This document shows positions 17,216 to 39,711 of a DNA stretch of 41,408 nucleotides, piece after piece (positions within the stretch are counted from its first letter, which is position 1; the number at the start of each line of letters is the position of its first letter). Source of the stretch: Bacteroidales bacterium (GTDB lineage: Bacteria > Bacteroidota > Bacteroidia > Bacteroidales > BM520); NCBI GenBank assembly GCA_017538085.1, contig JAFYJP010000195.1:1-41408 (forward strand), written 5' to 3'. The translations under genes and the position numbers were made by a program. The notes below the pieces were generated by a model that worked only from the letters and a program-made list of their open reading frames with translations, did not search any database and was not told where the DNA came from.

Positions 17216-19339
17216 ATGAAAATCAAATCATTACTCACCATTGCAATCGCAATATTAGCATCAATGCTCACACAGGCAAAAACTGTGGATATTATCACTG
17301 CTGAAAAAGTGGCAAGGAACTACTATTATCAGGAACAGAACTTTTATGCCACACCTATTAATTACAATGAAATAAATATAATTAACAGATTTGTTGAATC
17401 AAGAAACGGTGCCAATCTTCTGTACATCTTTGAAATACAGGGAGATGGTTTCATTGTCGTTTCTGCGGAGGATGTCATGACTCCTGTCATCGCACACATC
17501 ACCAAGAACGAGCCATGGAATCTGGAAAATGCCAATCCGGAATTCAAATATGTTATGGACGAATATCTCGACATGGTAGAATACACCCGTGAGAATTCGC
17601 TGCCTCAGGAAGCCGAAGTGGCAGCCGCATGGGCTTTATACACAACCGATGACGTTGCAACACTTATCTCCTCAAAAGAAGACAGAGACGAAATCAGCCC
17701 GTTACTGCATACCCTTTGGAATCAAGATTATCCATACAACTATTACTGCCCAGCTGCTTCAGGCGGTCCCGGAGGAAGATGCTACGCTGGATGTGTGGCT
17801 ACTGCAATGTCGGTTCTGATGGAATACTGGAGATGGCCGGAACATGGAAGAGGAACAACAACTTTCTATTCATCAATCGGCGGTTTTCTTATTGCAGACT
17901 ACGAGAACACCTATTACGACTGGGATGGAATGCTGACATCAATATCCCAAAACAGTGAAGATTGTGCAATATTTGCCAATGCACTACTTCAATATCATTG
18001 TGGTATCGGGGTGCAGATGAATTACGGTCCGGACGGTTCCGGTGCTTACTCATTTACTGTTCCTTATGTTATGAAGACTTTCTTCAGGTATTCGGAAGAC
18101 ATCGACATTATATCAAAAGATAACGGTTACACACAAGAGCAGTGGAACGAAATAATCTATGATGAACTATCACAGAAGCATGTACTCTACTATTCCGGTT
18201 GCAGTGAAAGCGGCTGTCATGCCTTCAACTGCGATGGATGGCGTAACACGTCCGGAACAGATTACCACCATTTCAACTTCAACTGGGGCGGTTCGGGCAA
18301 CGGCTGGTATGTCTCAACCAATCCAGGCGGGTTCAACACCAGTAACAACCTTATCATCAACGCCGTACCTGACACCGTCAACGAAACCTACCCGATGTAT
18401 GCATCCGGCCAGAAAGTTCTGACCGACAGAGTAGGCAGAGTCATGGACGGAAGCGGTCCTGTCAACAACTACATTCCTACTGAAGCTTCATGGCTAATCG
18501 ACCCGGCAAACGACCCGGCCGATTCAGTGGTAAACATTACAGTATCATGGGAATTCTTCAAACTTGCTGCGGGCGACTATGTAAGGATTTATGATGGTGC
18601 CACTACCGATGACCAGTTACTCGGCGAATACACTGGCACATCGCTGCCAGGCTCAGTAACTTCAACCGGCAAACAACTCCTCATAACCTTCTCGGCAGTA
18701 GGCTCAGGTGAAGGCTTCACTTTCATATACACTTCAACACGTCCTACATACTGCTCCGGACTGACTCAGATAACCGATGACCCATGTACAATTGAAGTGG
18801 CTCCTGAAGGAATGTACTACCAGCCCTTATCATTGTGCAGATACAAAGTGAATTATGGTAAACTTGGTGTTAAAATAACATTCGACTACATCGACACATA
18901 CGACGAAGACGACATCCTTCAAATTTATGACAGCAAAACCGATGAACTGTACACATTCTACGGAAGTGAAAAACCTGAAGACCTGTACATTGAAGGCTAC
19001 GCTCTAATAACTTTCAAATCCGACAATTTCAACTCAAGCAATTACGGATTCAGACTCACATGCACTTCATGGGACGGCATTGAAGTCTGTGACGATCAAT
19101 CTTCCGATATTGTGCTGTATCCTAACCCTGCTTCTGAGACAGTAAGAATTGACCTGACTGCCAATAACGATTTTGAATGCAAATTAATCAATCCGCAGGG
19201 TGCCGTAGTTTATTCCGAAATGTTTGAGGCGTCAACCAGCAATATCAACCTCAACATCTCAAACCTCCCAAAGGGCGTTTATGTTTTGCAACTAATTAAT
19301 AATGAGGGCGTTTTAACAAAGAAGCTCATTATCGAATAA
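17216..19339 (+). CDS. C10 family (streptopain/SpeB-like) cysteine protease with Spi/I69-like prodomain, two CUB domains and T9SS CTD
   Basis: GFIVVSAED prodomain, WNQDYPYN, AGCVATAM (C193), CHAFNCDG (H335), FNFNWGG, CUB-like DYVRIYDG...LLGEYTG...VTSTG, C-terminal LYPNPA...LPKGVYVL...KKLIIE. Confidence 0.9.
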   Translation: MKIKSLLTIAIAILASMLTQAKTVDIITAEKVARNYYYQEQNFYATPINYNEINIINRFVESRNGANLLYIFEIQGDGFIVVSAEDVMTPVIAHITKNEPWNLENANPEFKYVMDEYLDMVEYTRENSLPQEAEVAAAWALYTTDDVATLISSKEDRDEISPLLHTLWNQDYPYNYYCPAASGGPGGRCYAGCVATAMSVLMEYWRWPEHGRGTTTFYSSIGGFLIADYENTYYDWDGMLTSISQNSEDCAIFANALLQYHCGIGVQMNYGPDGSGAYSFTVPYVMKTFFRYSEDIDIISKDNGYTQEQWNEIIYDELSQKHVLYYSGCSESGCHAFNCDGWRNTSGTDYHHFNFNWGGSGNGWYVSTNPGGFNTSNNLIINAVPDTVNETYPMYASGQKVLTDRVGRVMDGSGPVNNYIPTEASWLIDPANDPADSVVNITVSWEFFKLAAGDYVRIYDGATTDDQLLGEYTGTSLPGSVTSTGKQLLITFSAVGSGEGFTFIYTSTRPTYCSGLTQITDDPCTIEVAPEGMYYQPLSLCRYKVNYGKLGVKITFDYIDTYDEDDILQIYDSKTDELYTFYGSEKPEDLYIEGYALITFKSDNFNSSNYGFRLTCTSWDGIEVCDDQSSDIVLYPNPASETVRIDLTANNDFECKLINPQGAVVYSEMFEASTSNINLNISNLPKGVYVLQLINNEGVLTKKLIIE

Positions 19340-19396: not shown

Positions 19397-21523
19397 ATGA
19401 AATTCAAATCATTACTCACATTCAGCTTAATTGCGTTATCGGCAATAGGTGTATCAGCAAAAAGCGTTGACAAGACAACAGCCGAAAAAGTCGCAAGAAA
19501 TTATTATTTTCAGCAGGCACATTATTTCGATACTCCAATATCGATTGATGCCATCAATTTTTCTGATTCATACGTAAAAAGTATTGATGACATACCCGTT
19601 ATGTATGTTTTCGACATTGAAGGCGGCGGTTTTGTTCTTGTATCTGCCGATGATGCCATGTATCCTGTATTGGGATATTGTTATGAAGAAGGTGTTAAAT
19701 TTGACATCGAGTCCCAGGGACACAATTACAAGTCATTTATTTCCAGTATGATGTATGGAATAAAAGATCTTATTACATCAAAAGCAAAGCAGGAGCCGGC
19801 AGTTGCTGAAGAATGGAAAACTTACTCAACTGACAATGCAACAGAATTAATTACTGCAAAAGACGATATTGAAGTAGGTCCTCTAATCACAGCCACATGG
19901 AATCAGGATTATCCTTACAACTATTACGCTCCATTATGCAGTGCAGGCGGCTCAGGCGGAAGATGTTACGCAGGCTGTGTGGCTACTGCTATGGCCGTTC
20001 AGATGTTCTACTGGGGTTATCCATACGTCGGTGAAGGGTCTTCAAATTACTATTGCAGCGGTTATGGTATGCAGAGCGCTTACTACAATGAAGCATATTA
20101 TGACTGGAAGGCAATGCCTACATCAATTACCAAGAACGATGAAACTGATGCAGTGCTGAACATAGCTCTCATACAGTATCACTGCGGTGTTAGTGTAAGA
20201 ATGCAGTTTGACCCGAATGGTTCAGGTGCTTATTCCGGTGATGTTCCTGGAGCTCTGCACGATCACTTCAAATATCCGTACGCAACATACGTCCAGAAAT
20301 CCAATACTAACACATGGGAAACCATGCTGATTGATCAGCTTGACAGCGGTTATCCTTTATATTACAGCGGCCATAGTCCTTCAGAAGGCGGTCACGCATT
20401 CAATTGCGACGGATATCGTGTGGTTGGAAACAACAAAACTTTCCACTTCAACTTCAACTGGGGTGGATATAAGAATTCCTGGTACACTTCAAGTTCTCCA
20501 GACGGTTTCTCACAGGACCAGGCTGTTGTTAAAGATTTCTACCCTGACGCTACAGATTATCCAACATATTTCGAAAACGTGGAAGTCACCTCCAAAGTAG
20601 GAAGAATCGATGATGGCTCAGGCCCTGTAGAAGACTATCTTCCAGGAACATACAACACTTGGCTCATCAATCCGCAATCAGACTATGACACCATCAAAAC
20701 CATCACACTGTCATGGGAATCATTTAACATTGCAGAAGGAGATGTGGTAAACGTTTATGATGGCAGCGATACTAACGCAGAACTTCTCGCTTCTTACACA
20801 AGCGGTGAAACACCAGGCTCGGTGACTTCAACAGGAAACAAGATGTTCGTTGAATTCTACGGCAATAATTCAGCTCCGGGATTCGTATTCACTTACACTA
20901 CCTCCAGACAGAAATATTGCAATACCTCTACTCCTTTAAGTTCAATTTACGGTACCATCGTCAGCAATCCTGATGACAAGCACTACAATCCTAAAACCCT
21001 GTGCCGTTGGAACTGTGTTTATCCTGAATCAACAGACGGTGGATATATCAAGTTCAACTACCTTAACACTTACGATGAAAATGATTTCGTATCCATAACC
21101 GATTTTGACACAGAAGAGACCTACATATTCTACGGCAATACAACACCGGATGAACTTATAAACTATGGGAATAAAGGCTTCCAGCTGGTATTCAGAACCG
21201 ATGGCTTCATCGAAGAAGGCAACGGATTCTCAGTTTATTTTGCCGACTGGAGTTACGATGGCATGAGAGAATTCGGGCTTGATGATATCAGAATATATCC
21301 GAATCCTGCAACAGACAAACTATACATCACCATTCCAAATATAGAGGAACAGGAAATCAAATACCAGATAGTCAACTCCAATGGCATGATAGTTGCTGAA
21401 GACACTTTATGCAGCTCTGACATTACAAGCAGCATAAATATCAGTTCATTACCGGCAGGTGTTTATGTCGTCAGATTCAGCAGCAACACTGGTGTGGCCA
21501 CAAAGAAATTTGTTGTAGAATGA
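19397..21523 (+). CDS. C10 family cysteine protease paralog with prodomain, two CUB domains and T9SS CTD
   Basis: GGFVLVSADD, WNQDYPYN, AGCVATAM (C194), GGHAFNCDG (H333), HFNFNWGG, CUB repeats, IYPNPA...LPAGVYVV...KKFVVE. Confidence 0.9.
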   Translation: MKFKSLLTFSLIALSAIGVSAKSVDKTTAEKVARNYYFQQAHYFDTPISIDAINFSDSYVKSIDDIPVMYVFDIEGGGFVLVSADDAMYPVLGYCYEEGVKFDIESQGHNYKSFISSMMYGIKDLITSKAKQEPAVAEEWKTYSTDNATELITAKDDIEVGPLITATWNQDYPYNYYAPLCSAGGSGGRCYAGCVATAMAVQMFYWGYPYVGEGSSNYYCSGYGMQSAYYNEAYYDWKAMPTSITKNDETDAVLNIALIQYHCGVSVRMQFDPNGSGAYSGDVPGALHDHFKYPYATYVQKSNTNTWETMLIDQLDSGYPLYYSGHSPSEGGHAFNCDGYRVVGNNKTFHFNFNWGGYKNSWYTSSSPDGFSQDQAVVKDFYPDATDYPTYFENVEVTSKVGRIDDGSGPVEDYLPGTYNTWLINPQSDYDTIKTITLSWESFNIAEGDVVNVYDGSDTNAELLASYTSGETPGSVTSTGNKMFVEFYGNNSAPGFVFTYTTSRQKYCNTSTPLSSIYGTIVSNPDDKHYNPKTLCRWNCVYPESTDGGYIKFNYLNTYDENDFVSITDFDTEETYIFYGNTTPDELINYGNKGFQLVFRTDGFIEEGNGFSVYFADWSYDGMREFGLDDIRIYPNPATDKLYITIPNIEEQEIKYQIVNSNGMIVAEDTLCSSDITSSINISSLPAGVYVVRFSSNTGVATKKFVVE

Positions 21524-25627: not shown

Positions 25628-28600
25628 ATGAAAAGAATTTTACGATTTGCCTTAGTGGCAATTTCAATGTTGTTAAGTGTTGCAGTAAGTGCACAGGTAA
25701 CAACATCAGGTATTTCTGGTAAAATCACCGGAAGCGACGGCACATTACCAGGAGCAACTATCGTTGTAAGACATGTTCCTTCAGGAACAACCTATGGAAC
25801 AACATCAAACAGTGAAGGCCGTTTCAATCTTCAAGGATTACGTTCCGGTGGTCCTTACAAAGTTGATATTACTTTCGTAGGCTATCATCCTGCATCTTTC
25901 GAGAACGTAACTCTCAAATTGGGTGAAACATACGTATTGAATGCAAATCTTAAACCGACAAACGTAAAAATCAATGAAGTTGAAGTCGTTGCCATTCAAG
26001 AGAATTCAATTATGAATTCAGAAAAATCAGGTACATCCACCAATATCACCTCCGAGGAAATTGATATGCTTCCTACCATTGAACGTAGCATTAACGACCT
26101 CGTAAAAATGACCCCTCAGTCAACAGGCATGTCCTTCGGCGGTCGTGACAGTCGTTACAACAACTTCACAGTCGATGGTGCAGGCTTCAACAACAATTTT
26201 GGTCTGAGCAGCGATCTTCCTGGTGGCAGCAATGGTCCTATAAGCATTGATGCTCTTGAGCAGATCAGTGTTAACATCGCTCCATACGATGTTCGTCAGT
26301 CACGTTTCACAGGTGCTGCCATCAATGCCATCACAAAATCCGGTACAAACGAAATTAAGGGAAGCGTTTACACTTTCCAACAATTCCCTGGCTTACACGG
26401 ATACAAGGTTGCTGGTGACTCTGTAGCAAACGCAGTCAACATCAGTTCACAGACATACGGCTTAAGCGTTGGCGGTCCTCTCATTAAGAACAAATTATTC
26501 TTCTTCATAAACGGTGAATACTCTCCTATGGTAAATGCAGGTCCGTCATGGAAGCCATACGAAGGTGACGACCCAACTTTCGACGGCGATGCAACCACCA
26601 ACACTTCACGTACAACCGTAACTGACCTTGCAAGAGTTAAAAACTATCTTATTGAAAAATATGGTTACGACCCAGGCGAATATGGTCAGGGCGGATGGAC
26701 AGCTTTCAACGACTACAATTACAAGATTATGGCTCGTTTGGACTGGAATATCAACCGTAACAACAAGTTAATGTTCCGTTTCAACAAGGTTCAGAACTCC
26801 GTCATGAACCTCACAAATGCAAGCTCCTGCCCTTCAGGACTTTATCGTGACAGAAACTACAGCCGTATGGGTGTCTATTCAATTGCATTCAGCAACAACT
26901 TCTACAGAATGAACAATAATGTCACATCATTTGCATTAGACTGGAACTCACGCATAAGTGACAGAGTTTCCAATCAGTTACTTGCTTCATACAATATGAT
27001 TGGTGACCAGCGTTCAACCCCATCATCAACAGTTTTCCCACACGTTGATATTTTCAAAGACGGACATCAATACATGTCATTCGGTACTGAACTTTTCTCA
27101 TATCACAATGAAGTCATCAACAATACTGCTGACATTATCGACAATGTAACCATTGACCTTGGTAATCATACTATTACAGCAGGTTTCGCTTTCGAATGGA
27201 TGTATGTTCGTAACTCCTATATTCGTGAAGGCACATCATACTATCGTTACGAAAGCGTTGACGATTTCCTGAATAACGCAACACCTATAGGAATGGGTAT
27301 CACATACGGATACAATGGCAACGACGCTCCTGGCCAAATGCTCACATACGCACAAGAAAGCTTGTATGCACAGGACGAATGGAACATCACTGACAATTTC
27401 AAGTTGACATACGGCATTCGTTTTGATCTTCCTAACTATCTTGACAAGGACATGGTTAAGAACAATGTTATTGACAGTATTGCTACAGCAAATAATTTTG
27501 CAGGTGGTGAATGGAACACTGGAACATGGCCAAAATCAAATATTTCAATCAACCCACGTTTAGGTTTCAACTGGGACATCAACGGTGACCGCAGTCTCCA
27601 GCTCCGTGGTGGAACAGGTCTCTTCACCGGTGTCAACCCATTTGTATGGTTCACCAACCAGGTAGGTAGTGCAGCATTTGTACAATCTCCTGAAATGAGT
27701 TTTGCCGAAGCTGACATAGCATCAAAGCTCCCTGGCATAGTATTCTATAAAGACTACAAGGAGCTTCTTGCTAAATATCCTGACGTCTTCCCAAAAGAAC
27801 CAGATGCTGATTATCTTCCAAGCGGCTCAACAATATGTCTCGTTGACAAAAACTTCAAGTTCCCGCAGGTATGGAGAAGCAATCTCGCTCTTGACGTTGA
27901 ACTCCCATGGAACATGGTTCTCACTCTCGAAGCTCTCTACACTCGTGACGTCGTAGGCGTTAAACAGTTAAATGTCAACCAGACAGATTCCGATCTTCAA
28001 ATGTATGGTGCAGACAACCGTACAGTTTGGGAAGGCAGTCCTAAGGTATCAAACGATATTGCAGCAGCAATGCTCTTCACCAATACCACAAAGAAAGGTT
28101 ACTCAACTCAGCTGACAGCTCAACTCACTAAGAACATGACAAAGGGTTTCTCAGGTATGGTAGCTTATACCTATTCTATCTCTAAGGACCTCACATCAAA
28201 TCCTGGTTCAGCTGCTTACTCAGCATGGACATCAAGCACAGCTGTCAACTCTCTTAACGATGAAGAACTCGGATACAGCGTATTCTCTGTTCCTCACCGC
28301 GTTGTAGGTGACATCTCCTATCGTATTGACTATGCTAAGCATTTCGCAACAACAATTTCCCTCTACTATGAAGGTCAGCACAACGGTCGTATCAGCTACG
28401 TTTACAACAATGACGTCAATGGCGACGGTATCAGCGCTGATTTAATCTATGTTCCTAAGTCTGCTGATGAAATCAATTTCGTTGATATGACTGACAAAGA
28501 CGGTAACGTCCTTATGACAGCACAAGCACAAAGTGATGTCTTCATGAACTATATCAACAACAACAAATACCTCAAATCACGCATGGGCAACTATGCTGAA

Positions 28601-28942
28601 CGTTTCGGCGGTCTCCAGAGATGGGTCAACGAATTCAATGTAAAACTTGCTCAAGATATTTACACCACTTCCAGAACTGACCATCGCTATGGCATTCAGA
28701 TTACAGCCGACATCCTCAATATTGCTAACATGATTAACAGCAACTGGGGTTGCTACTACACCAACAAATGGCTGAACTATCAGAATCTTGCTCTCCTCAA
28801 TGTGGTTGACAAGGGCACAAGCACAACTGCTCCTACATTCACACTGAGAAGCAATGACTTTGAAAACGATGTTGAATGGACTCCTGCTAAGGTCGCTTCC
28901 AACTGCTGGGGCGTCTTATTAGGTCTTCGTCTGATATTCTAA
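25628..28942 (+). CDS. TonB-dependent receptor, Oar-like, with N-terminal carboxypeptidase-regulatory-like domain
   Basis: AQVTTSGISG, VPSGTTYGT, GGPY, NNNFGLS, PISIDA, APYDVRQ..FTG..INA.TKSGTN, YAQDEW, PRLGFNWD, C-terminal LGLRLIF. Confidence 0.92.
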   Translation: MKRILRFALVAISMLLSVAVSAQVTTSGISGKITGSDGTLPGATIVVRHVPSGTTYGTTSNSEGRFNLQGLRSGGPYKVDITFVGYHPASFENVTLKLGETYVLNANLKPTNVKINEVEVVAIQENSIMNSEKSGTSTNITSEEIDMLPTIERSINDLVKMTPQSTGMSFGGRDSRYNNFTVDGAGFNNNFGLSSDLPGGSNGPISIDALEQISVNIAPYDVRQSRFTGAAINAITKSGTNEIKGSVYTFQQFPGLHGYKVAGDSVANAVNISSQTYGLSVGGPLIKNKLFFFINGEYSPMVNAGPSWKPYEGDDPTFDGDATTNTSRTTVTDLARVKNYLIEKYGYDPGEYGQGGWTAFNDYNYKIMARLDWNINRNNKLMFRFNKVQNSVMNLTNASSCPSGLYRDRNYSRMGVYSIAFSNNFYRMNNNVTSFALDWNSRISDRVSNQLLASYNMIGDQRSTPSSTVFPHVDIFKDGHQYMSFGTELFSYHNEVINNTADIIDNVTIDLGNHTITAGFAFEWMYVRNSYIREGTSYYRYESVDDFLNNATPIGMGITYGYNGNDAPGQMLTYAQESLYAQDEWNITDNFKLTYGIRFDLPNYLDKDMVKNNVIDSIATANNFAGGEWNTGTWPKSNISINPRLGFNWDINGDRSLQLRGGTGLFTGVNPFVWFTNQVGSAAFVQSPEMSFAEADIASKLPGIVFYKDYKELLAKYPDVFPKEPDADYLPSGSTICLVDKNFKFPQVWRSNLALDVELPWNMVLTLEALYTRDVVGVKQLNVNQTDSDLQMYGADNRTVWEGSPKVSNDIAAAMLFTNTTKKGYSTQLTAQLTKNMTKGFSGMVAYTYSISKDLTSNPGSAAYSAWTSSTAVNSLNDEELGYSVFSVPHRVVGDISYRIDYAKHFATTISLYYEGQHNGRISYVYNNDVNGDGISADLIYVPKSADEINFVDMTDKDGNVLMTAQAQSDVFMNYINNNKYLKSRMGNYAERFGGLQRWVNEFNVKLAQDIYTTSRTDHRYGIQITADILNIANMINSNWGCYYTNKWLNYQNLALLNVVDKGTSTTAPTFTLRSNDFENDVEWTPAKVASNCWGVLLGLRLIF

Positions 28943-28960
28943 CTTTATCATTGCATTATG

Positions 28961-28997
28961 AAAACGTGGGGATGATTTTCATTCCCACGTTTTTTTT
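28961..28997 (+). terminator. Intrinsic terminator after the TonB-dependent receptor
   Basis: AAAACGTGGGGATGA-ttt-TCATTCCCACGTTTT stem followed by a T-tract. Confidence 0.85.
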
Positions 28998-29030
28998 GCT
29001 CAAAAATCAATTCATTAACGTAATTATTTT

Positions 29031-29038
29031 TATTTTCG
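29031..29038 (+). promoter_or_regulatory. Possible variant -7 promoter for the 29070-35600 operon
   Basis: TATTTTCG(CA), one mismatch to TAnnTTTG, just downstream of the terminator and 31 nt before the ATG. Confidence 0.4.
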
Positions 29039-29069
29039 CATTTTGTTTAATTTCAAATATAATTTCAAA

Positions 29070-29822
29070 ATGAAAAAGATAATTCTTACAGCTCTTGCAA
29101 TACTCATTTACAATATCGGCTTTGCGCAATATCCGCGTATTTATGGAGTTACCACATACGAATTGATTTTTTCATCAGCCCAATATAATGTTTTCGACAG
29201 CAAAAGCGGCAACGTCCTGCGATTCTCCCCATGGTTCAATCTTGAGGAATCAGTGAACTTCGACATAGCGACTGTTGTCGGATTCACCGCCGGAATATCA
29301 GTGAAAAACATTGGTATCATCCATAAACTGAGTGACCCTTCCACAATTGACCCAAAATTTGATAGCACACCCATCAAGAAAGAATTCCGCTCATATAATA
29401 TAGGTATCCCCGTAGGTTTCAAACTCGGCAACCTGTCACAATTTTTCATATACGGAGGTTATGAGTTCGAAATCCCAATCAACTTTAGGGAAAAAACTTA
29501 TATAGATGGAGCAAAGACAAAATACGAAAGCGAATGGTTCAGCAACAAAACACCGAGATACATGCAATCGCTGTACCTTGGACTGAAGTTCCCATATAAT
29601 TTAGGTATAAAAGCCAAATACTACCTCACCAACTTCTTCGCAAACGATTGTGAAGACTATGTGCATGACTATCCTGCAATTAAATACAAGGATTTTGAGG
29701 CACGGCCTTTCTACTTGAGTCTGACCATTGATTTGTTCAACAAAATGGATACAAGAATTTCCATTCCATCACTGAACAGCAAAAGCAAAAAAAATAGTGA
29801 GCCGCAGTATTATTACGATTAA
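29070..29822 (+). CDS. Hypothetical exported protein, probable outer-membrane beta-barrel
   Basis: Signal peptide MKKIILTAL...GFA-Q; alternating amphipathic strands (GFTAGISVKNIG, RSYNIGIPVGFKLG, FFIYGGY, SLYLGL, GIKAKYYL, FYLSLTI). The ATG at 29070 is preferred. Confidence 0.6.
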   Translation: MKKIILTALAILIYNIGFAQYPRIYGVTTYELIFSSAQYNVFDSKSGNVLRFSPWFNLEESVNFDIATVVGFTAGISVKNIGIIHKLSDPSTIDPKFDSTPIKKEFRSYNIGIPVGFKLGNLSQFFIYGGYEFEIPINFREKTYIDGAKTKYESEWFSNKTPRYMQSLYLGLKFPYNLGIKAKYYLTNFFANDCEDYVHDYPAIKYKDFEARPFYLSLTIDLFNKMDTRISIPSLNSKSKKNSEPQYYYD

Positions 29823-29824
29823 TA

Positions 29825-32800
29825 ATGACAACACACAGAAACAGTAAATTAGGCACTACATCAGGAGTATTTCTGCCATCGCTTCTGACCATCGTCGGGG
29901 CAATAATGTTCCTGCGATTGGGTTGGATAATCCAACATGGCGGGCTGATACAGTCAATTTGGATAGTCATCACTGCCTTCGCAATGTCCCTGATTACAGG
30001 ATGTTGCCTGTCGTCAATTGCAACCGACAAGAAGATACAGGATGACGGCATATATCATATACTTACGAGAAGTCTGGGGCTGCCGATGGGAAGCACCATC
30101 TGCATTATGATGACTCTTGCCCTGATTTTCAGTGCCGCATTGCAAATAATAGGTATATCCGAATCCCTGCTCGACATTTCAAAAGCAAGCAATTTTCTGC
30201 ATATTGCACCATCAGCCGCATCATACAGGATTATCGGTTCGATATTGCTACTACCTGTCTTCGCATTGGTGATGATATCCCGTAAATCCACATTAATTCA
30301 GAAATTCAAATATGTGGTCGTCATCACCATCATCCTTGCAACCATTTCCATAATTGCCGGTTTATTTACAAAAGAAGACATTCATCCTCTTGTGCCAACT
30401 ACAGGAACCGCATACGACGGTCACTCATGGATTTATATTTTCAGCATATTTTTCCCTGCATTATCAGGTTTTGCCACCGGCCTCGCCAATTCAACAGGTT
30501 TGAAGGACGCTAAGAAATCCATTCCGAGAGGGATGATTCTCGCAATAATCACAAGTGCCGTCATATATCTTTCAGTAATAATACTGCTTGCGTATGAAGT
30601 CAGACCCGACATTCTCAAGACGACCAATTATCTTCCTTCAATATCATGGAATGCCACGATAACATTTATATGCTGTTGGATATCACTTGTCTTCATAGCC
30701 ATAAATGCTCTTACAATCGGATCCGACATAATTCTATCCATGGTTCATGACAAGGTGCTGCCAGAGTTCTTCGCCCATTCCTCTGACAATTCTGGTAAGC
30801 CGGTCATTAACATTGTAATCATGTTTGTCCTCACCGAATGTGCAATACTCATCGGTGATTTCAACACCTTAGCTCGGATAACAACATTTTTCCTGCTTGT
30901 TTCATACGCGCTCATCAATCTTGCGCTGATGCTTGAGAAATGGACTAACCCGGATTTCCGGCCCACATTCGATGTTAGCAAATATATAGGTCTCATCGGA
31001 TTGTTTATATGCAGTGTTGCCTTATACGACATTAATCGCTATGGGATGCTGGGAACAGTAATTGCCGTAATTCTGCTCTACTTTTTCATCAGACGCAAAA
31101 GACTTCAGCTCGAATATGATGATATATGGCAAAACGTACTCCTCGCCATCACAAAAACATCTATTTCAAGAATAAACAAAAGAAAACTCGAAAACAGAAC
31201 GTGGCAGCCCAACATCATCGTTTTCAGCGGTGACAAAGACCAGCGGCCGTATCTTGTAGATTTCGGAAAATGGATTGCAGGCAAACATGGATTTGTAAGC
31301 AACTTCAACATCACAACATCAAAAGAAAAAAAGAACGCATACAAAAATTCACGTCGTGACAGCAATGTCATTGAAAACAAAATATTTCCGTCAAACGACA
31401 TATACAGCGGAATAGAGACTGTGGCAAGTGTATATGGGTTTGCCGGAATCGAACCCAATACCGTATTGTTAGGGTTTAACAGCACCGCCAAGAATCGCGA
31501 GAGATACATTACCATGCTCGCCAACATTTCCAAACTCGACAAAAATATCCTTCTTATCCATTACAACGAAGACAACGGCTTTGGAAACAAGAAGAATTTC
31601 GACGTTTGGGTTACTCCGGGTGAAAGAGACAGCCTCTTCGCGCTCAATGTTATCAAGCTGATTAGCAATTCAACCGAATGGTCACAATGCTCGCTCAGAA
31701 TCAAGGTGGTGAACAGCAACAATTCCTCATACAATCTTGTGTATAACAAAGTTGAGGAAATAATGGCACAACTTCGAATAAGCGGCGAAATCCTAATCAT
31801 CAACAACGAACTCGAAGACAAACCAGTAAAAGACTTAATCGCCTCACATTCGACCGATGCAGATGTCATCTTCATTGCCGTACCACCTACTGGAAACTAT
31901 AACGAGAAATACGACTACATGTCCAACCTCTCACAAATCAACAAGACAATCATATTCGTCAAGGCCTCAACCGAGTTCCAGTCAATAGGCAACCTCGACA
32001 TCATCACCAAACAGCTATTGCAACCAGAACAGACAGCAGTCACAGAAGAGGATGTCGAACTGCAACTTCCTATACGTCAGGAAGCAGCATCATTCTTCGT
32101 TGACCTTGACAAACAGGTCCAGACAGCCATTGACAAATCATTGAACAACCGTTTTGACCTGATTTCCAAATATTTCAAAACCAATATCGAGTACATACTC
32201 GAAACTGTAAAAAACAACTACGTTCAGACAAATTCCCCGGGAAGATTCCGTCACATTGCACATATTTCAGGAAAAACCATCAAACAAAAGTTTCTGGAAT
32301 TCATCAATAACATACTGCCCGAGATACATAATCTAATTTTAGGCAGCAGCAGGGATTTCCTAAACGAAATGTCAACAATATGTGCTTCTGTACCTAAAAC
32401 ATTCACAGTGTTTTACGAGGAAAATCTATCCTACCCCTCTGATAACGACACTCACGACATCATCAAATTCAAGAAGAAACTCGCACGTTATTTCAAACAC
32501 AACAGAGAAGGATTCTACCCTTACGAAGTCAAAATCGACAAGTTCATAACCAACAGGTTGGATGCCATGTACAACGAAATGATGACCAAAGCATTCGACC
32601 AATTCAAGGATTATTGTCTTTCGTATTATTTCAATGTCAACAACATCATCAATTCCATCGATGACACTAATGCAATAATAAACGGTTCCTGCAACATTGA
32701 AGGCTTCAATTTCGATAAGGCAGTTGAGAACATATATTCTCACATTGAGACTTCCAATGACAAAAACAACAAGACTGTCAATGAAATAAAGAACACTCTT

Positions 32801-34864
32801 ACCGCTATAAAGAACAAATATTTTGATGAAATACGCAATTATTTTGACGTTCTCAACTTCGGTGAAATCAAAGTCAAATCCAATGCTGTTAACTGTAACA
32901 GCTGTTCAGACGCAGTAACTGACAAATTCGACAGACTCAGCACAATACTGCCGGCATTGTTTAACAGACTGGTACTCAACACCGACCTCACAATCTTCAA
33001 AATAAAACTCAAGAGTTACTGTTCTGAAACGCTATCCCTCATAACTGATTTCATCAACAATAAAGTCATCCCGTTCCATGAGGCATTCATCAGCGCAATC
33101 AAGGAAAACAACAACATAGAGCTCGTTGAGACATCCTCCGAATATGACATGAAATCCGACATGTTCTCACATTTCAGTGAAATCAACGACAAAATAAACA
33201 AGAGTATTCTTCGTTTTCCGTCCGAAATAACAATTCTCGACAATCAGGCAGTGGCATGCCTTGGGGATGAAAACATCCACTCAGTGCATTCATCCAACTT
33301 CGCCGCATCGCGACTGCTTGACAATTCAGTGATCTACTATTATTCCAACAACATAAAGAAACAACTCAACCTCCTCGGTTCCAAAGTTGACAGTTCGCTC
33401 GACAAGCACAAGGACATCATCACACAGCTGTCATTCACCAATGAAGACAATGACGAGCAGAAAGATGCCATCATTCTTAACATCTACAATCTGATAATTG
33501 ACCTCAAGACATCGCTGAGCGAAACATGCCACGAAATACAGTCAACAGAAACCATTACTGACGAACAGCTGCAAATCGAACAGTTCATTGACTCTTCCCA
33601 CAATCTGCACAACATCATCAGCACTAACATCAACGATAAGAAAAAGGAGAAAATTCTTTCACTGCGTGAAAAGATATCCGTTTCATTCCACAAGACACTG
33701 TCGAAAATCTTCTATCGCCAGAACTCAAGCATCAAATTTGCCAAGAATCTTCAGCAGAGAAATTCCGACAATGAACTTCTGAAACTTTATATCAACGCAA
33801 TCAACAAAATATCGCTGAAACCTGAAGTTGACCAGACTCTCCCATACTCCTACAAACAGTTATTCATCAATAACCAGCAGTACAACAAGGAATTATGGGT
33901 CGGAAGAGTCAGGGAAACAAACGACTTCAACATTCTTCTAGGTCAGTACAACAGTCTGAAGGCAGGAGCGATTATGGTTACCGGAGGCATAGGCTCAGGC
34001 AAAACCTTCTTCTCGTATCACGTTGCCAAGACTGCATTTCCGGACCAGCAGATATTCACCATAAAATCCGTTACCGGCGGAAGTGCATCTGTAAGCAAGT
34101 TCGAGACCTCATTTCTCAGAGCCATCGAAATGCAGAATATATCTTTATTCAAGGCTATCCGCGAAATCCCTAAAGGCTCAATTTTCATCCTCGACAACAT
34201 TGAACAATGGTGGCACCGCGGTGACAAAGGCAATGATGTGATAAAACTGATCACCGAGTTGGTAAACAAATACAGCGAAAACTATCTGTTTATTTTGAAT
34301 TCAAACACCGAAGGCCTTAACGCTCTGCAACTTACCACCAACATACGAGATATAATAATCGGTACTGTCAATCTGCTTCCGTTCAGCGCTGAAGAAATCG
34401 AAGCCATCATCACAAGACGTCATAAGGCAGGAAACATGCATATATGCATTGACAACAAGAATGAAAAACTTCTGCGTCCATGGCACTATGCACAACTGTT
34501 CCTGCAATATGACAAACTAACGACTGGCAACATCAAATCAGCCTTAAGCACATGGCTCGCATGTATCGACAAAGTAGAAAACGACACTATTTTCGTACAT
34601 CATCCTGAAGTTCCGAAGTCATTGCCGTTCAATGAATTAACAAAACAACAGATTATATTTCTCGTACAGTTCATAATACATAACAACATGTCATACGAAA
34701 GGATGCAGGCAATTTACAATCGCCCGATATCAAGTCTGAAACAGGATGTCAACGTGCTTATCAGGTTAAGGCTTCTTGAAAAGAAGAGCGAGAATGTTAT
34801 CGGAATAAACAATATCCTATATCCATTTATTATAGAGGAACTTAACAACATAGAAATGATTTAA
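29825..34864 (+). CDS. SLC12/cation-chloride cotransporter-like (APC-fold) permease fused to a helical region, a P-loop NTPase and a C-terminal winged helix
   Basis: LGTTSGVFLP.LLTIVGAIMFLRLGW, LSSIAT, IYHILTRSLG, FSIFFPALSG, LKDAKKSIPRG, FFLLVSYALIN, FRPTF and RTWQPNIIV (CCC signatures); WVGR at aa 1358, Walker A GGIGSGKT at aa 1387, Walker B IFILDN at aa 1457. Confidence 0.85.
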   Translation: MTTHRNSKLGTTSGVFLPSLLTIVGAIMFLRLGWIIQHGGLIQSIWIVITAFAMSLITGCCLSSIATDKKIQDDGIYHILTRSLGLPMGSTICIMMTLALIFSAALQIIGISESLLDISKASNFLHIAPSAASYRIIGSILLLPVFALVMISRKSTLIQKFKYVVVITIILATISIIAGLFTKEDIHPLVPTTGTAYDGHSWIYIFSIFFPALSGFATGLANSTGLKDAKKSIPRGMILAIITSAVIYLSVIILLAYEVRPDILKTTNYLPSISWNATITFICCWISLVFIAINALTIGSDIILSMVHDKVLPEFFAHSSDNSGKPVINIVIMFVLTECAILIGDFNTLARITTFFLLVSYALINLALMLEKWTNPDFRPTFDVSKYIGLIGLFICSVALYDINRYGMLGTVIAVILLYFFIRRKRLQLEYDDIWQNVLLAITKTSISRINKRKLENRTWQPNIIVFSGDKDQRPYLVDFGKWIAGKHGFVSNFNITTSKEKKNAYKNSRRDSNVIENKIFPSNDIYSGIETVASVYGFAGIEPNTVLLGFNSTAKNRERYITMLANISKLDKNILLIHYNEDNGFGNKKNFDVWVTPGERDSLFALNVIKLISNSTEWSQCSLRIKVVNSNNSSYNLVYNKVEEIMAQLRISGEILIINNELEDKPVKDLIASHSTDADVIFIAVPPTGNYNEKYDYMSNLSQINKTIIFVKASTEFQSIGNLDIITKQLLQPEQTAVTEEDVELQLPIRQEAASFFVDLDKQVQTAIDKSLNNRFDLISKYFKTNIEYILETVKNNYVQTNSPGRFRHIAHISGKTIKQKFLEFINNILPEIHNLILGSSRDFLNEMSTICASVPKTFTVFYEENLSYPSDNDTHDIIKFKKKLARYFKHNREGFYPYEVKIDKFITNRLDAMYNEMMTKAFDQFKDYCLSYYFNVNNIINSIDDTNAIINGSCNIEGFNFDKAVENIYSHIETSNDKNNKTVNEIKNTLTAIKNKYFDEIRNYFDVLNFGEIKVKSNAVNCNSCSDAVTDKFDRLSTILPALFNRLVLNTDLTIFKIKLKSYCSETLSLITDFINNKVIPFHEAFISAIKENNNIELVETSSEYDMKSDMFSHFSEINDKINKSILRFPSEITILDNQAVACLGDENIHSVHSSNFAASRLLDNSVIYYYSNNIKKQLNLLGSKVDSSLDKHKDIITQLSFTNEDNDEQKDAIILNIYNLIIDLKTSLSETCHEIQSTETITDEQLQIEQFIDSSHNLHNIISTNINDKKKEKILSLREKISVSFHKTLSKIFYRQNSSIKFAKNLQQRNSDNELLKLYINAINKISLKPEVDQTLPYSYKQLFINNQQYNKELWVGRVRETNDFNILLGQYNSLKAGAIMVTGGIGSGKTFFSYHVAKTAFPDQQIFTIKSVTGGSASVSKFETSFLRAIEMQNISLFKAIREIPKGSIFILDNIEQWWHRGDKGNDVIKLITELVNKYSENYLFILNSNTEGLNALQLTTNIRDIIIGTVNLLPFSAEEIEAIITRRHKAGNMHICIDNKNEKLLRPWHYAQLFLQYDKLTTGNIKSALSTWLACIDKVENDTIFVHHPEVPKSLPFNELTKQQIIFLVQFIIHNNMSYERMQAIYNRPISSLKQDVNVLIRLRLLEKKSENVIGINNILYPFIIEELNNIEMI

Positions 34865-34868
34865 CGTC

Positions 34869-35600
34869 ATGGAAGGGACTGAAATTCAATACAATCTGAC
34901 GCAAACGATAATCATTATAATCGTTGTCACACTGATTCTTTTGCTCATACTGAGGCTGCTGAAATACATATTCCCGCTGCTTCCGCGTAAAGAACGCACC
35001 AGAGAATGGATAAAAAAGAATTTCGTTTATGCCGAAAGTTTCATTTGGATGATTTACCTCGCCATCATCATTCCCTACCTGCACAAGACCAACATCATTT
35101 TTGAAATAGTTGCAGTCTCCATCATCCTGATTGTAATCATATTGATAGGATATTATTTCGGAAGGGATTTCTTTGCTGGAATTGTTTTCAAGTTTGCCTA
35201 TAAAATAAAGGAAGGAGACTTCATACAATACAATGACACTGTCGGGAAAGTCAAGAAACTCGGAATACAGAACATAGAAATGGAATCAGATGACAACCGA
35301 CTGATATTCATTCCATACACATCAGCCAAACGCGGTATCTTCAGCAAGATATTCAACAATGAACAAAGTCTGACCTGCACTTTTTCATTCACCATTGACT
35401 CTCCAGCCGTTAGCAAGGAAACGATTTCCTCAATCAAAACGTATCTGTTATCCCACCCTTCTGTCTCCACGCAATATGAACCGGTAATAAAATTCAATCA
35501 GGACGAAAACATGAAGACTTTGGCAACTATCTCATTTACAACGCTTGACGAATCAATGGATGACACCATAATAGAAAATGTTAAAAACAAATTCAAATAA
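34869..35600 (+). CDS. Small-conductance mechanosensitive channel (MscS)-like protein
   Basis: Three TM helices, then RDFFAGI......IKEGDFIQ....GKVKKLG...IEME.DD..LIFIP, which matches the MscS TM3b/beta-domain pattern. Confidence 0.78.
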   Translation: MEGTEIQYNLTQTIIIIIVVTLILLLILRLLKYIFPLLPRKERTREWIKKNFVYAESFIWMIYLAIIIPYLHKTNIIFEIVAVSIILIVIILIGYYFGRDFFAGIVFKFAYKIKEGDFIQYNDTVGKVKKLGIQNIEMESDDNRLIFIPYTSAKRGIFSKIFNNEQSLTCTFSFTIDSPAVSKETISSIKTYLLSHPSVSTQYEPVIKFNQDENMKTLATISFTTLDESMDDTIIENVKNKFK

Positions 35601-35689
35601 TTCCGGTTTACAAAACATATTAGCACGATTTTTGAGAAAAGGATTTACAAAGACAAGATAATATTAACAATTAATCTATTTATATCATT

Positions 35690-36664
35690 ATGAAAAGAAT
35701 CGCTTTATTAGTATCGGTGTTGATTTTTTCAACATTTATGGTATCAGCACAATCAATTAACGATGCAGGTGCAAAATTCAACGAAGCCAATGAATCTTTC
35801 AAAGCTAAAGATTACGCCAAAGCAATAGAGAGTTATACTGAAGCTCTGAACATGTGTGAAGCTCTCGGTGAAGAAGGGGCAGAATTGGGAGAAAAAATCA
35901 AGAAACAGATTCCAAACGCATACGTGAATCAAGGTAAAACTCAAATGCAGAACAAGGATCTTGACGGAGCAATCACCACTCTGACCACTGCAATATCAGA
36001 GGCACAGAAATACAATAATGAGAAGGCTGAGAAAAGTGCCAACAAACTCCTGAGCAATGCTTATCTTGTAAAGGCAGGCAACGCATATCAGGCAAAGGAC
36101 TTTGACAATGCCCTTGACATGTGCGGAAAAGCAATAGCGAGCAACGCAGCAGCCACAAAGGCATATCTTTATGAAACCCTCATATACAGCGAACAGAATG
36201 ATGAAGAAAAGATGATTGAAGCTGCCAACCTGACAATCAAATATGCAATGGCATCCAAAGAACCAGATGAAAAAACAGCATCACAAGCCAAATCAACAGC
36301 TTACACATATTTCATCAACAAAGCTCAAGAAGCATTTGGAAAGAAGAAATATGCTGATGCCGTTACCGACCTTGACAAAGCATTACAATTCGACGAACAA
36401 AGTCAGACTGCCTTTTACCTCAAAGCTTCCAGCCTCAACTTCCAAGGGAAACACGATGATGCCATTGCAACAGCACTGCTCGGTCTCGAAGCTCCGGACA
36501 ACGACCACACACAGTTCCTCGGCATCAACCTCGAACTTGCAAGGGCTTACGAAGCTAAAGGTGACACCGAAAACGCTTGCAAATACTACAAGATTGCTGC
36601 ACAGTCACCTAACTTCAAAGCTGAAGCTGAAGGAAAAATGAAAGATGTTCTCAAATGCAACTAA
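35690..36664 (+). CDS. Exported tetratricopeptide repeat protein
   Basis: Signal peptide ending VSA-Q; TPR units (KDYAKAIESYTEAL, KDFDNAL, KKYADAVTDLDKAL). Confidence 0.85.
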   Translation: MKRIALLVSVLIFSTFMVSAQSINDAGAKFNEANESFKAKDYAKAIESYTEALNMCEALGEEGAELGEKIKKQIPNAYVNQGKTQMQNKDLDGAITTLTTAISEAQKYNNEKAEKSANKLLSNAYLVKAGNAYQAKDFDNALDMCGKAIASNAAATKAYLYETLIYSEQNDEEKMIEAANLTIKYAMASKEPDEKTASQAKSTAYTYFINKAQEAFGKKKYADAVTDLDKALQFDEQSQTAFYLKASSLNFQGKHDDAIATALLGLEAPDNDHTQFLGINLELARAYEAKGDTENACKYYKIAAQSPNFKAEAEGKMKDVLKCN

Positions 36665-38452: not shown

Positions 38453-39604
38453 TCATATACGTGTTATGCCCATAGGCCATTCATGCGAAATGATATCTAA
38501 CATGTAACGATAATCCCCATCATTATTCACAAAATCAAGAGAACTGGTATTTACAATTACTATTCTCTTTCCGCTTTCCTGACGGAAATAATCAAGATAC
38601 CCATCCTGTATCGACTGCAGATAGTCATCGGATATGTTACGTTCATAGCTGCGGCCGCGTTTTCTGATGTTACTCTGCAAATTTTCAACCGGCAGATGAA
38701 GATATACCAACAAGTCGGGTTCCGGCAATTTTGTCTTTATGATATTGAACAGCACGGAATAAAGACGGAAGAGGTCGTCAGACAAAGTCTTTCCGGCAAA
38801 AATATAAGACTTGGACAAAAAATAATCCGATACCACAAGATTATGGAACAAGTCCATATTTATCAGATTATCAGTCAATTGTCTGTATCTCGCAGCAAGA
38901 AATGAGAGTTCCACAGGAAAAGCGTACTTATCTTTATCAGCATAAAACATTGGGAGAAACGGATTGTCGGCAAACTGTTCAAGAATCAATTTTGCATTGA
39001 GGTCTTTTGCAATACGAGTTGAAAGCGATGTTTTTCCTGCGCCTATGCAGCCTTCTATGGCAATATAAGAATAAATATGTTCGATATTATGCTGTAAATC
39101 AGCGCCATAATTATCGCGGTCTATTTTTTTGACTTTCAGTGAATCAGTGCATTCAAGATATAGCTGACGGACAGTTTTATGAAGTACTGGGTGCATGAAA
39201 TCAGGGATGATGTCATTAAGCGGTTCCAATACAAATCTGCGTTCAGTAAGCTGGTGATGGGGAATTTTCAGATACAGTTCATTTACGACCAATTCGCCGT
39301 ATAGGATTATATCCACATCAATTATTCTGTTTTCATACCTGCGGTCGAAAGTCTTCCTGCGTCCCATTTCAATCTCAACAGACTTGCATACGTGCAGAAT
39401 CTCAAAAGGCAGCAGGTCGGTGGTGTAAACTACCGCACGGTTATAGAACATTTTGTCGGTGTCATATCCCCAAGGTTCCGTTTCATATATGGCACCAATC
39501 AGCTTGGGTGAGCCGAAAAAAGCATTCAGGCGATGAATGGCAGTGCTTATATTTGATTCCCTGTCGCCGAGATTTGTTCCAATCATTAAAACTAAGTCTC
39601 TCAT
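38453..39604 (-). CDS. folK: FolK (HPPK) fused to a deoxynucleoside kinase domain
   Basis: IGTNLGDR, YETEPWG, RIIDVDIIL and IPH..L.ERRFVL.PL (HPPK); IAIEGCIGAGKT, NPFL..FY and RGRSYE (dNK). The start is the ATG at 39604. Confidence 0.9.
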   Translation of the reverse strand: MRDLVLMIGTNLGDRESNISTAIHRLNAFFGSPKLIGAIYETEPWGYDTDKMFYNRAVVYTTDLLPFEILHVCKSVEIEMGRRKTFDRRYENRIIDVDIILYGELVVNELYLKIPHHQLTERRFVLEPLNDIIPDFMHPVLHKTVRQLYLECTDSLKVKKIDRDNYGADLQHNIEHIYSYIAIEGCIGAGKTSLSTRIAKDLNAKLILEQFADNPFLPMFYADKDKYAFPVELSFLAARYRQLTDNLINMDLFHNLVVSDYFLSKSYIFAGKTLSDDLFRLYSVLFNIIKTKLPEPDLLVYLHLPVENLQSNIRKRGRSYERNISDDYLQSIQDGYLDYFRQESGKRIVIVNTSSLDFVNNDGDYRYMLDIISHEWPMGITRI

Positions 39605-39658
39605 TTTCAAAAAAATTCTTTTACGGAAATATTTTAGCAATATTACAAAAAAAATATA

Positions 39659-39666
39659 TATCTTTG
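39659..39666 (+). promoter_or_regulatory. -7 promoter element for sppA
   Basis: TATCTTTG, 45 nt upstream of the ATG at 39712. Confidence 0.55.
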
Positions 39667-39711
39667 TGGTTTGAATCATAACTTTATAAACAAAAAAATA
39701 GTATTTTTATT

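Follow-up and report, generated by a model that had tools for sequence, protein, structure and literature searches.

The DNA considered here, called the window below, comprises positions 1 to 41,408 of contig JAFYJP010000195.1 of a Bacteroidales bacterium (assembly GCA_017538085.1). Its gene content includes C10 peptidases that bear type-9-secretion sorting domains, together with an FBPase_2 of the firmicute type, a SpoU methylase and a sigma factor, and by this content it looks like a segment of a Bacteroidota chromosome. Three co-directional genes on its + strand (29070-29822, 29825-34864 and 34869-35600) are separated by gaps of 2 nt and 4 nt in the open reading frame (ORF) listing and translations, which confirms the layout and coordinates of the tight operon named in the original prediction. 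Gene 2 joins a cation-chloride cotransporter (CCC) permease to an AAA+ module, and gene 3 encodes an MscS-family protein. The domain identities and the fusion are established, and so is the fact that the AAA+ module and one MscS subfamily are very strongly coupled in genomes. With a confidence slightly better than even, we interpret genes 2 and 3 as a conserved two-protein module for ion and osmotic homeostasis that would contain a nucleotide switch, the mechanism being our inference. The features of the locus are as follows (TM, transmembrane).

28960-28997, + strand: 16-bp hairpin with U run, 3' of an outer-membrane protein gene (25628-28942)
29070-29822, + strand: gene 1, 250 aa from the ATG, putative small outer-membrane beta-barrel with a signal-peptide-like N-terminus
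29825-34864, + strand: gene 2, 1679 aa, predicted permease, CCC cytoplasmic domain, helical scaffold and AAA+ module
29825-31144, + strand: gene 2 residues 1-440, predicted 12-TM LeuT-fold CCC/SLC12 transport domain
31145-32044, + strand: gene 2 residues ~441-740, predicted CCC cytoplasmic C-terminal domain
32045-33832, + strand: gene 2 residues ~741-1336, predicted scaffold of ~40-70-residue helices with small beta inserts, of no known family
33833-34861, + strand: gene 2 residues 1337-1679, predicted AAA+ alpha/beta domain, lid and winged helix (Orc1/Cdc6-like)
33983-34006, + strand: gene 2 residues 1387-1394, Walker A motif GGIGSGKT
Gene 2 residues 1456-1463, + strand: Walker-B-like motif LDNIEQWW
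34869-35600, + strand: gene 3, 243-aa MscS-family protein predicted to have three TM helices plus a beta and an alpha/beta domain

The N-terminal part of gene 2 is, by sequence comparison, a true CCC/SLC12 (TC 2.A.30) permease with its cytoplasmic domain. Residues 5-674 match the K-Cl cotransporter model TIGR00930 (E=3.2e-77, below the whole-protein cut-off of 953 bits), and residues 14-423 match AA_permease (E=1e-29, 104 bits against a cut-off of 24.6). In phmmer searches KCC4 (7d99) aligns at E=3.3e-47 and other SLC12 chains at E 1e-34 to 3e-47; the KCC4 alignment extends across residues 440-660 of the query, that is, into the CCC cytoplasmic domain. The Pfam SLC12 model reaches residues 611-676 at E=3.7e-5 (23.4 bits, under the cut-off of 27), and the prokaryotic C-terminal models CCC_C_1st_pro and CCC_C_2nd_pro have no match to gene 2 at E<=0.1. 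Motif conservation was counted in 79 aligned fusion sequences. The P-x-x-T/S-G motif of TM6 is nearly invariant (P211 in 79/79, S/T214 in 76/79, G215 in 79/79), and the Cl- site tyrosine of TM10 (KCC4 Y589) corresponds to Y361, which is kept in 78 of the 79 fusions.

The C-terminal part of gene 2 was approached mainly through structure prediction. A sequence search of residues 750-1679 against Protein Data Bank (PDB) chains returned nothing at E<=1. An AlphaFold2 (AF2) model of residues 700-1679, built from 82 sequences (mean predicted local distance difference test, pLDDT, 85), places the scaffold helices at model residues 53-602, and their sole structural match in the VIA comparison is a designed helical bundle (4uos, Z 12.8). 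Because the scaffold was modeled only together with the AAA+ part, its fold cannot be called new. Residues 1382-1525 match AAA_14 at E=6e-6 (26.7 bits, just under the Pfam cut-off of 27). Foldseek pairs the module with ORC2 (1w5t, E=1.3e-6), and VIA pairs it with Orc1/Cdc6 (2qby_A, Z 14.9, root-mean-square deviation 7.2, 282 aligned residues, model residues 639-957), and also with 1w5s_A (Z 14.4) and 1fnn_B (Z 13.9). The modeled C-terminus of gene 2 is thus an Orc1/Cdc6-like AAA+ base with lid and winged helix. Together with the TIGR00930 and AA_permease matches, the AAA_14 and structure matches uphold the proposal that a CCC permease is here fused to an NTPase. The Walker A motif is well conserved (G1387 in 78/79, G1392 in 79/79, K1393 in 73/79 with Arg in five). 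R1532 is present in all 79 fusions, the pair R1532-H1533 is invariant or nearly so, and its modeled position in a lid helix (model helix 823-837) makes R1532 a plausible candidate for the sensor 2 arginine.

Gene 3 was likewise found to be what had been proposed, an MscS-family protein. MS_channel_2nd matches above its cut-off (E=4e-9, 36.9 bits against 20.2), and a phmmer search of the PDB recovers Helicobacter pylori MscS (4hw9, E=4.3e-4). The AF2 model (pLDDT 89.1) contains three long helices followed by beta and alpha/beta domains; its best Foldseek match is Escherichia coli MscS (6pwo, E=4.6e-11 over 240 columns), the top 50 matches are all MscS-family chains, and YnaI (7n4t) gives a TM-score of 0.59/0.61. 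Sequence identity to the MscS structures is ~13-19%. Gene 3 thus resembles E. coli MscS and YnaI in whole-chain fold and beta domain, and the model is that of a complete MscS-fold protein with predicted channel activity. The pore helix TM3a is rich in Ile, Leu and Val (VAVSIILIVIILIGYY), whereas that of E. coli MscS has a Gly/Ala pattern. Unlike E. coli MscS, gene 3 falls in a subfamily of its own whose members always have an AAA+ gene as partner. The MscS family also includes the K+-dependent MscK.

The coupling of the two genes was followed first among close relatives. Residues 750-1679 of gene 2 were searched against 1.84 billion representative proteins, yielding 846 relatives, 287 of them at E<=1e-30; among the 150 matches listed from these 287, most are ~1700 aa long. 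Loci were pooled from related genomes and from a pattern scan, one genome per species, and the best 80 of 345 confirmed scan loci were kept. The scan derives from an 8-sequence alignment and fishes for [DN]LELWWE[KR], a motif without a match in the window's own protein, so the sample, drawn from at least 345 confirmed loci, leans toward carriers of that motif. The records behind the scan loci are of Bacteroidales, Cytophagales, Sphingobacteriia, Calditrichia, Ignavibacteriaceae and Desulfobacterota type, and some carry the label 'Proteobacteria'. All were scored with hidden Markov models built from these same loci, and the locus counts given here and below include kin that are not independent; they describe a distribution and are not a statistical test. 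The full CCC-helical-AAA fusion was present in 83 of the 89 complete ORFs of the close subfamily. Where there was room downstream, an MscS-like gene followed on the same strand at 88 of 96 close loci, its stop lying within 1 kb in 85.

Genome-wide presence and absence gave the same picture. Across 41 related genomes, the MscS-like profile had 20 matches of at least 128 bits, one per genome, and the next best match scored 81.6 bits, a bimodal distribution. The 20 genomes with this orthologue are exactly the 20 that have the AAA part (20/20 versus 0/21), and the orthologue adjoins the fusion in 19 of the 20; in the remaining genome (G026) it lies on another contig. The co-occurrence that had been suggested as a test therefore holds for the CCC-NTPase/MscS pair and fails for the barrel gene. 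By this comparison the conserved unit is an AAA+ protein plus an MscS-like gene, not the three-gene set, and gene 3 is a dedicated partner of the AAA+ module.

Three loci deserve separate mention. The fusion locus of G026 (L011) has no channel gene, and the orthologue of that genome (G026:C46:11687-13215) stands directly after a second MscS-family frame. L094 (5053-19122) contains a fusion and an MscS-like gene as well as an additional CCC of 752 aa whose C-terminal domains are of the prokaryotic type, with a second system on the opposite strand. L062 (14037-17207) has a second, distant AAA_16-type protein of 1056 aa together with a 394-aa MscS-like gene.

The pair reaches well beyond the fusion. 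A profile of the AAA module matched 77 of 401 evenly drawn Bacteroidota genomes, in 34 of 180 genera, with a single match in 76 of the 77. An MscS-family gene lies directly downstream at 74 of the 78 AAA places in this phylum sample. Of the 76 places that were fetched, i.e., all except those of G000 and G040, 72 are directly followed by a gene of the MscS family, 241-372 aa long. The ATPases of this wider family are mostly unfused and fall into classes of ~950-1050, ~1465-1500 and ~750-830 aa. At 22 loci, most of them in one genus (g110), the ATPase ORF is just 287-437 aa as called (a natural minimal form or a mis-called start) and consists of the AAA module alone. Since the ATPases are mostly unfused, and some are reduced to the AAA module with the channel gene still downstream, the AAA module appears from sequence to be the piece tied to the channel, with or without a transporter. 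This conserved core, an AAA+ ATPase and MscS channel pair that also occurs without any CCC, was missed in the original prediction. Examples of the short ORF with its downstream MscS-family gene are L106, L118, L130, L131, L136 and L137.

Ion transport recurs around the pair. At 18 of the 76 fetched loci, one or more cation transporters are either fused or encoded no more than 3.7 kb away: TrkH with or without TrkA at seven, a Na_H_Exchanger-like protein at six, CorA at two and a CCC (fused, split or nearby) at further loci. TrkH/TrkA directly follow the AAA-MscS pair at six loci, and TrkH alone precedes it at a seventh. A Na_H_Exchanger gene also flanks six of the close loci. A split form of the system (L019; G012:C482, 3-6299) has four genes in a row: first TrkA, next a Na_H_Exchanger of 670 aa, then a helical-AAA protein that stands alone at 941 aa, and last the MscS-like gene. 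The ion or osmotic role that had been proposed fits the TrkH/TrkA, Na_H_Exchanger and CorA neighbors of these unfused relatives. A conserved row of an AAA protein of ~1490-1500 aa, an MscS-like gene, TrkH and TrkA is seen at L107, L108, L120, L165, L169 and L172; at L107, L108 and L120 it is headed by an unknown protein of ~420 aa, and the ~1100 N-terminal residues of the AAA protein have no match to a Pfam family. The 90% identity cluster of L019 has six members.

These findings can be joined in the following scheme. A cation-chloride cotransporter would move salt across the inner membrane; a rigid helical arm would extend its cytoplasmic end and carry an Orc1/Cdc6-type AAA+ nucleotide switch, which would work with the dedicated MscS-family channel encoded immediately downstream. 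The AAA+/winged-helix module may dock onto the MscS-like channel from the cytoplasmic side. Through the nucleotide state of this module, membrane tension sensed by the channel might be relayed to the transporter, or else the release of solutes through the channel might be gated; either way the uptake of salt would be coordinated with its release. A gene for a putative small outer-membrane barrel has been added in front in the window's genus. Contact was modeled by complex prediction with gene 2 residues 923-1679 and gene 3, which scored 0.35 against 0.00 for the best of three controls, with at least 78% of contacts agreeing between runs and a partner pLDDT of at least 69. Among solved complexes, 58 of 80 scored at least this high, as did 2 of 110 mismatched pairs; just 7 of the 80, but both of the mismatches, did so with a score of 0.60 or below. 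The prediction thus weakly favors a contact between the AAA part of gene 2 and gene 3. A further step, that the AAA+/MscS pair is a new kind of regulated mechanosensory complex in which a tension-sensing MscS-like heptamer is read out or gated by an Orc1/Cdc6-like nucleotide switch, is a tentative suggestion that we consider possible but doubtful. If it were true, the CCC fusion would give a cotransporter a direct, kinase-free volume response, a functional counterpart of CCC volume regulation in eukaryotes.

Several observations weigh against the homeostasis module. At eight of the 96 close loci no MscS-like gene adjoins the fusion, and six of the eight are in Bacteroidales/Bacteroidota metagenome-assembled genomes (L011, L026, L027, L030, L040 and L084). 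The link to ion transport is not universal, because at 47 of the 76 second-tier loci, mostly of one family (f58), a divergent Amidase_3 gene is the sole conserved neighbor and there is no transporter. The complex score falls in a band in which wrong predictions outnumber right ones, except where a contact was already likely on other grounds. Walker B is atypical: an acidic residue is there in nearly every sequence, but with non-canonical spacing in which a D/N pair is followed by Leu-Glu; the consensus of the 79 fusions is [DENH][DN]-L-E-L-W-W-E, residues 1457/1458 are DD in 21, ED in 18, ND in 14, HD in 10, DN in 8 (including the window), EN in 4, HN in 3 and DE in 1, and E1460, two residues past this pair, is present in 77/79. 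Nor was an arginine finger seen between residues 1496 and 1531, where no basic column exceeds 52/79. The atypical Walker B and the lack of an invariant arginine finger in this interval make ring-type hydrolysis doubtful, and the AAA+ motifs would fit a binding-driven switch better than a ring motor. To these points must be added that transport substrate, channel activity, ATP binding or hydrolysis and physical contact are all inferred.

The cation site also weighs against the scheme. The K+ site tyrosine of TM3 (KCC4 Y216) is present in 70 of the 79 fusions, and the window has Gln107 instead; the position is Gln, His or Asn in all five aligned sequences of the same genus (the window and L004-L007). 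As far as the site definitions in PMC7200160 extend, this tyrosine is conserved among K+-transporting CCCs and the K+-independent NCC has His at the same position (PMC7200160); the Gln of the window copy is unlike either. Since the tyrosine is replaced in the window's genus, the transporter there may handle another cation than its relatives in the rest of the family do. Gln107 bears on K+ dependence, not on membership of the CCC family. The source genome, at 95% completeness, encodes one TrkH elsewhere, so the fusion is not its sole candidate route for K+; Kup and KdpA were not found in the genome at this completeness.

Other explanations of the pair were considered. The AAA+ protein could be an assembly, insertion or remodeling factor of the chaperone type for an MscS-like heptamer, with the transporter fusion merely placing it at the membrane. 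The minimal conserved pair, an AAA module of 287-437 aa with a downstream MscS gene, would suit such a factor, and the structural neighbors include the remodeling AAA+ proteins NSF D2 (Z 14.6), Vps4 and p97. The top structural matches, however, are switches of the initiator/loader type (Orc1/Cdc6 at Z 14.9, ORC2 and TnsC), a C-terminal winged helix without a conserved arginine finger is a poor fit to ring unfoldases, and we know of no MscS channel that requires an assembly or remodeling factor; we regard this explanation as unlikely. To the same degree improbable, in our estimate, is an operon that serves co-expression only, the transporter, ATPase and channel acting independently in salt stress, with neither physical nor regulatory contact. 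Clustering of osmotic-stress genes is common, and the complex prediction supports a contact between the products of genes 2 and 3 only weakly. Against independence, one MscS subfamily tracks the AAA module across phyla, whether the module is fused, split off or minimal, much lower scores are obtained for the general MscS paralogues that these genomes have at other places, co-occurrence is 20/20 versus 0/21, and the covalent joining of ATPase to transporter argues for direct action on the transporter.

The resemblance of the C-terminal module, winged helix included, to the DNA-binding initiators Orc1/Cdc6 raises the question of whether the AAA+ protein is a membrane-tethered regulator that, by binding DNA or some other target, adjusts transcription to ion flux, with the MscS-like protein as sensor; one standalone form adjoins a hybrid histidine kinase (L069). 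Such a regulator is very unlikely in our judgment, as over 1300 residues of membrane protein and scaffold precede the winged helix and would tether it, contacts between proteins are a frequent function of winged helices, and no DNA target or conserved operator was seen, though none was sought. Still less credit is given to an anti-phage abortive-infection module in which an NTPase sensor triggers membrane depolarization via the permease or the channel, the defense-like alternative of the original prediction. Its NTPase-plus-membrane-effector logic resembles some defense systems, VIA lists Avs3, AVAST5, BrxC and plant NLRs at Z 12-13, and nSTAND1 matches a single distant relative, though weakly and under the cut-off (E=6e-5). 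Yet these Z scores are those of any P-loop AAA+ fold, and none of the PADLOC-DB 2.0 families matches the three proteins at E<=0.01. The neighboring genes have housekeeping roles and keep their order within clades (amidase, enolase and TrkHA, and for the window itself FBPase, SpoU and the sigma factor), there is usually one AAA match per genome, and identity roughly follows kinship, all of which speaks against this alternative.

Compared with known systems, the homeostasis module that we favor draws on several. Like the eukaryotic CCCs (SLC12: KCC1-4, NKCC1/2 and NCC), gene 2 has homologous transport and cytoplasmic domains, the TM6 Pro and Ser/Thr and the Cl- site tyrosine, and a link to volume and ion homeostasis is proposed for it. 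It differs from them in having no long N-terminal regulatory tail, TM1 starting from about residue 10, and in its ~940 extra C-terminal residues with the helical scaffold and AAA+ module. Eukaryotic CCCs are regulated by WNK-SPAK phosphorylation, which has no counterpart in gene 2. Standalone prokaryotic CCCs (~745-752 aa, with CCC_C_1st_pro and CCC_C_2nd_pro) are of the same permease family, but end after the C-terminal domain and carry no ATPase; such paralogues occur in related genomes, one of them inside the L094 fusion locus described above. A C-terminal-domain structure from a Methanosarcina CCC reportedly exists. The AAA+ base, lid and winged helix and the intact Walker A are shared with Orc1/Cdc6 initiators and with archaeal Walker-type ATPases (PABY2304, 2qen, Z 14.1; SSO1545, 2fna, Z 12.6). 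Unlike Orc1/Cdc6, the gene 2 module is joined to or encoded beside membrane transport proteins, not replication genes, has a Walker B region of the form D/N-D/N-L-E-L-W-W-E and shows no conserved arginine finger. TrkA/TrkH, and KefC with KTN/RCK domains, are nucleotide-gated K+ systems. They share with gene 2 the concept that a K+ transporter is controlled by a nucleotide-binding module in the cytoplasm; gene 2 would differ in using an AAA+ fold instead of a Rossmann-type RCK and in having an obligatory MscS-family partner.

Every component comes from a known family, and the combination appears undescribed: full-text literature searches, with subscription journals and supplements outside their reach, returned no description of the CCC-AAA fusion or the AAA-MscS pair. 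Public records name the proteins hypothetical protein, amino acid permease/SLC12A domain-containing protein, ATP-binding protein or mechanosensitive ion channel domain-containing protein. Among the cultured carriers is Desulfoluna limicola ASN36, whose fusion is annotated as a hypothetical protein (in UniRef as an amino acid permease/SLC12A domain-containing protein) and whose channel partner is annotated as a mechanosensitive ion channel domain-containing protein. Very little work has been done on prokaryotic CCCs, and how any CCC senses volume without kinases is a standing question. MscS-family proteins are usually seen as self-sufficient valves; here a distinct subfamily is evolutionarily bound to an AAA+ ATPase that is repeatedly fused to or encoded beside K+ and other cation transporters, in a cassette that is widespread and unstudied. 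The pair thus offers a specific case in which to test whether nucleotides control a channel of the mechanosensitive type and the transport of salt.

Gene 1 stands apart from this pair. Its ATG precedes a signal-peptide-like segment (MKKIILTALAILIYNIGFAQ), and the longest ORF begins at a TTG at 29043. The match to OMP_b-brl_2 (PF13568) is under the cut-off of 27 (E=5e-3, 17.3 bits), and the Atlas feature neighbors (score 0.98) include one cluster in which 62% of members have PF13568, so that the sequence points weakly to a small Bacteroidota outer-membrane barrel. The seven homologous matches (L001-L007) are all from the window's own genus and lie upstream of the fusion, and elsewhere in the close family the upstream genes vary by clade. 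Gene 1 is a genus-specific addition outside the conserved module, and the earlier inclusion of the barrel in the system is not supported. The one genus with the barrel gene upstream is also the genus in which the K+ site tyrosine is replaced.

The hairpin at 28960-28997 marks the end of the upstream outer-membrane protein gene and the start of a separate transcription unit. Its RNA fold (stem-loop at about 28960-28994, before the U run; -25.3 kcal/mol, z = -7.0) was equaled in stability by none of 200 shuffles, in agreement with the strong terminator that had been proposed there; a simple terminator scan did not list it and listed none 3' of gene 3 either. The accompanying proposal of a promoter of the operon's own did not hold up in the same way: a sigma-70-like match lies at 29035-29063, and since such matches are barely above chance in the region (27 found versus 19.1 +/- 4.3 expected), a promoter 5' of gene 1 is not established.

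Contigs from RNA libraries, 90-99% alike to window positions 28800-35800, were found in four runs (X5-X8) from four studies with bovine or sheep gut metagenome labels, so close relatives of the source organism are present in such samples. Contigs from these four ruminant-gut libraries overlap parts of all three genes, which is a hint of their expression, with DNA carry-over possible; many bins of the stretch lacked coverage in at least one run, to which no meaning is attached. One contig (X5, 531 nt, 34548-35078) bridges the junction of genes 2 and 3, subject to the same caveat; at the junction of genes 1 and 2, record 18 of X7 extends just 29 nt inside gene 2 and was not scored as bridging. 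Record 16 of X6 (35429-35696) spans gene 3 into the beginning of a TPR gene at 35690, and a downstream gene similar to the window's recurs at four loci of the same genus.

Elsewhere in the window, tandem paralogous genes for C10 (streptopain-like) peptidases (17216-19339 and 19397-21523) are followed by a thioredoxin gene, and each peptidase combines an inhibitor prodomain of the I69 type with a CUB domain and a sorting tail for type-9 secretion. On the - strand, a 408-aa ORF at 38453-39679 combines an HPPK domain of the folate pathway with a deoxynucleoside kinase domain.

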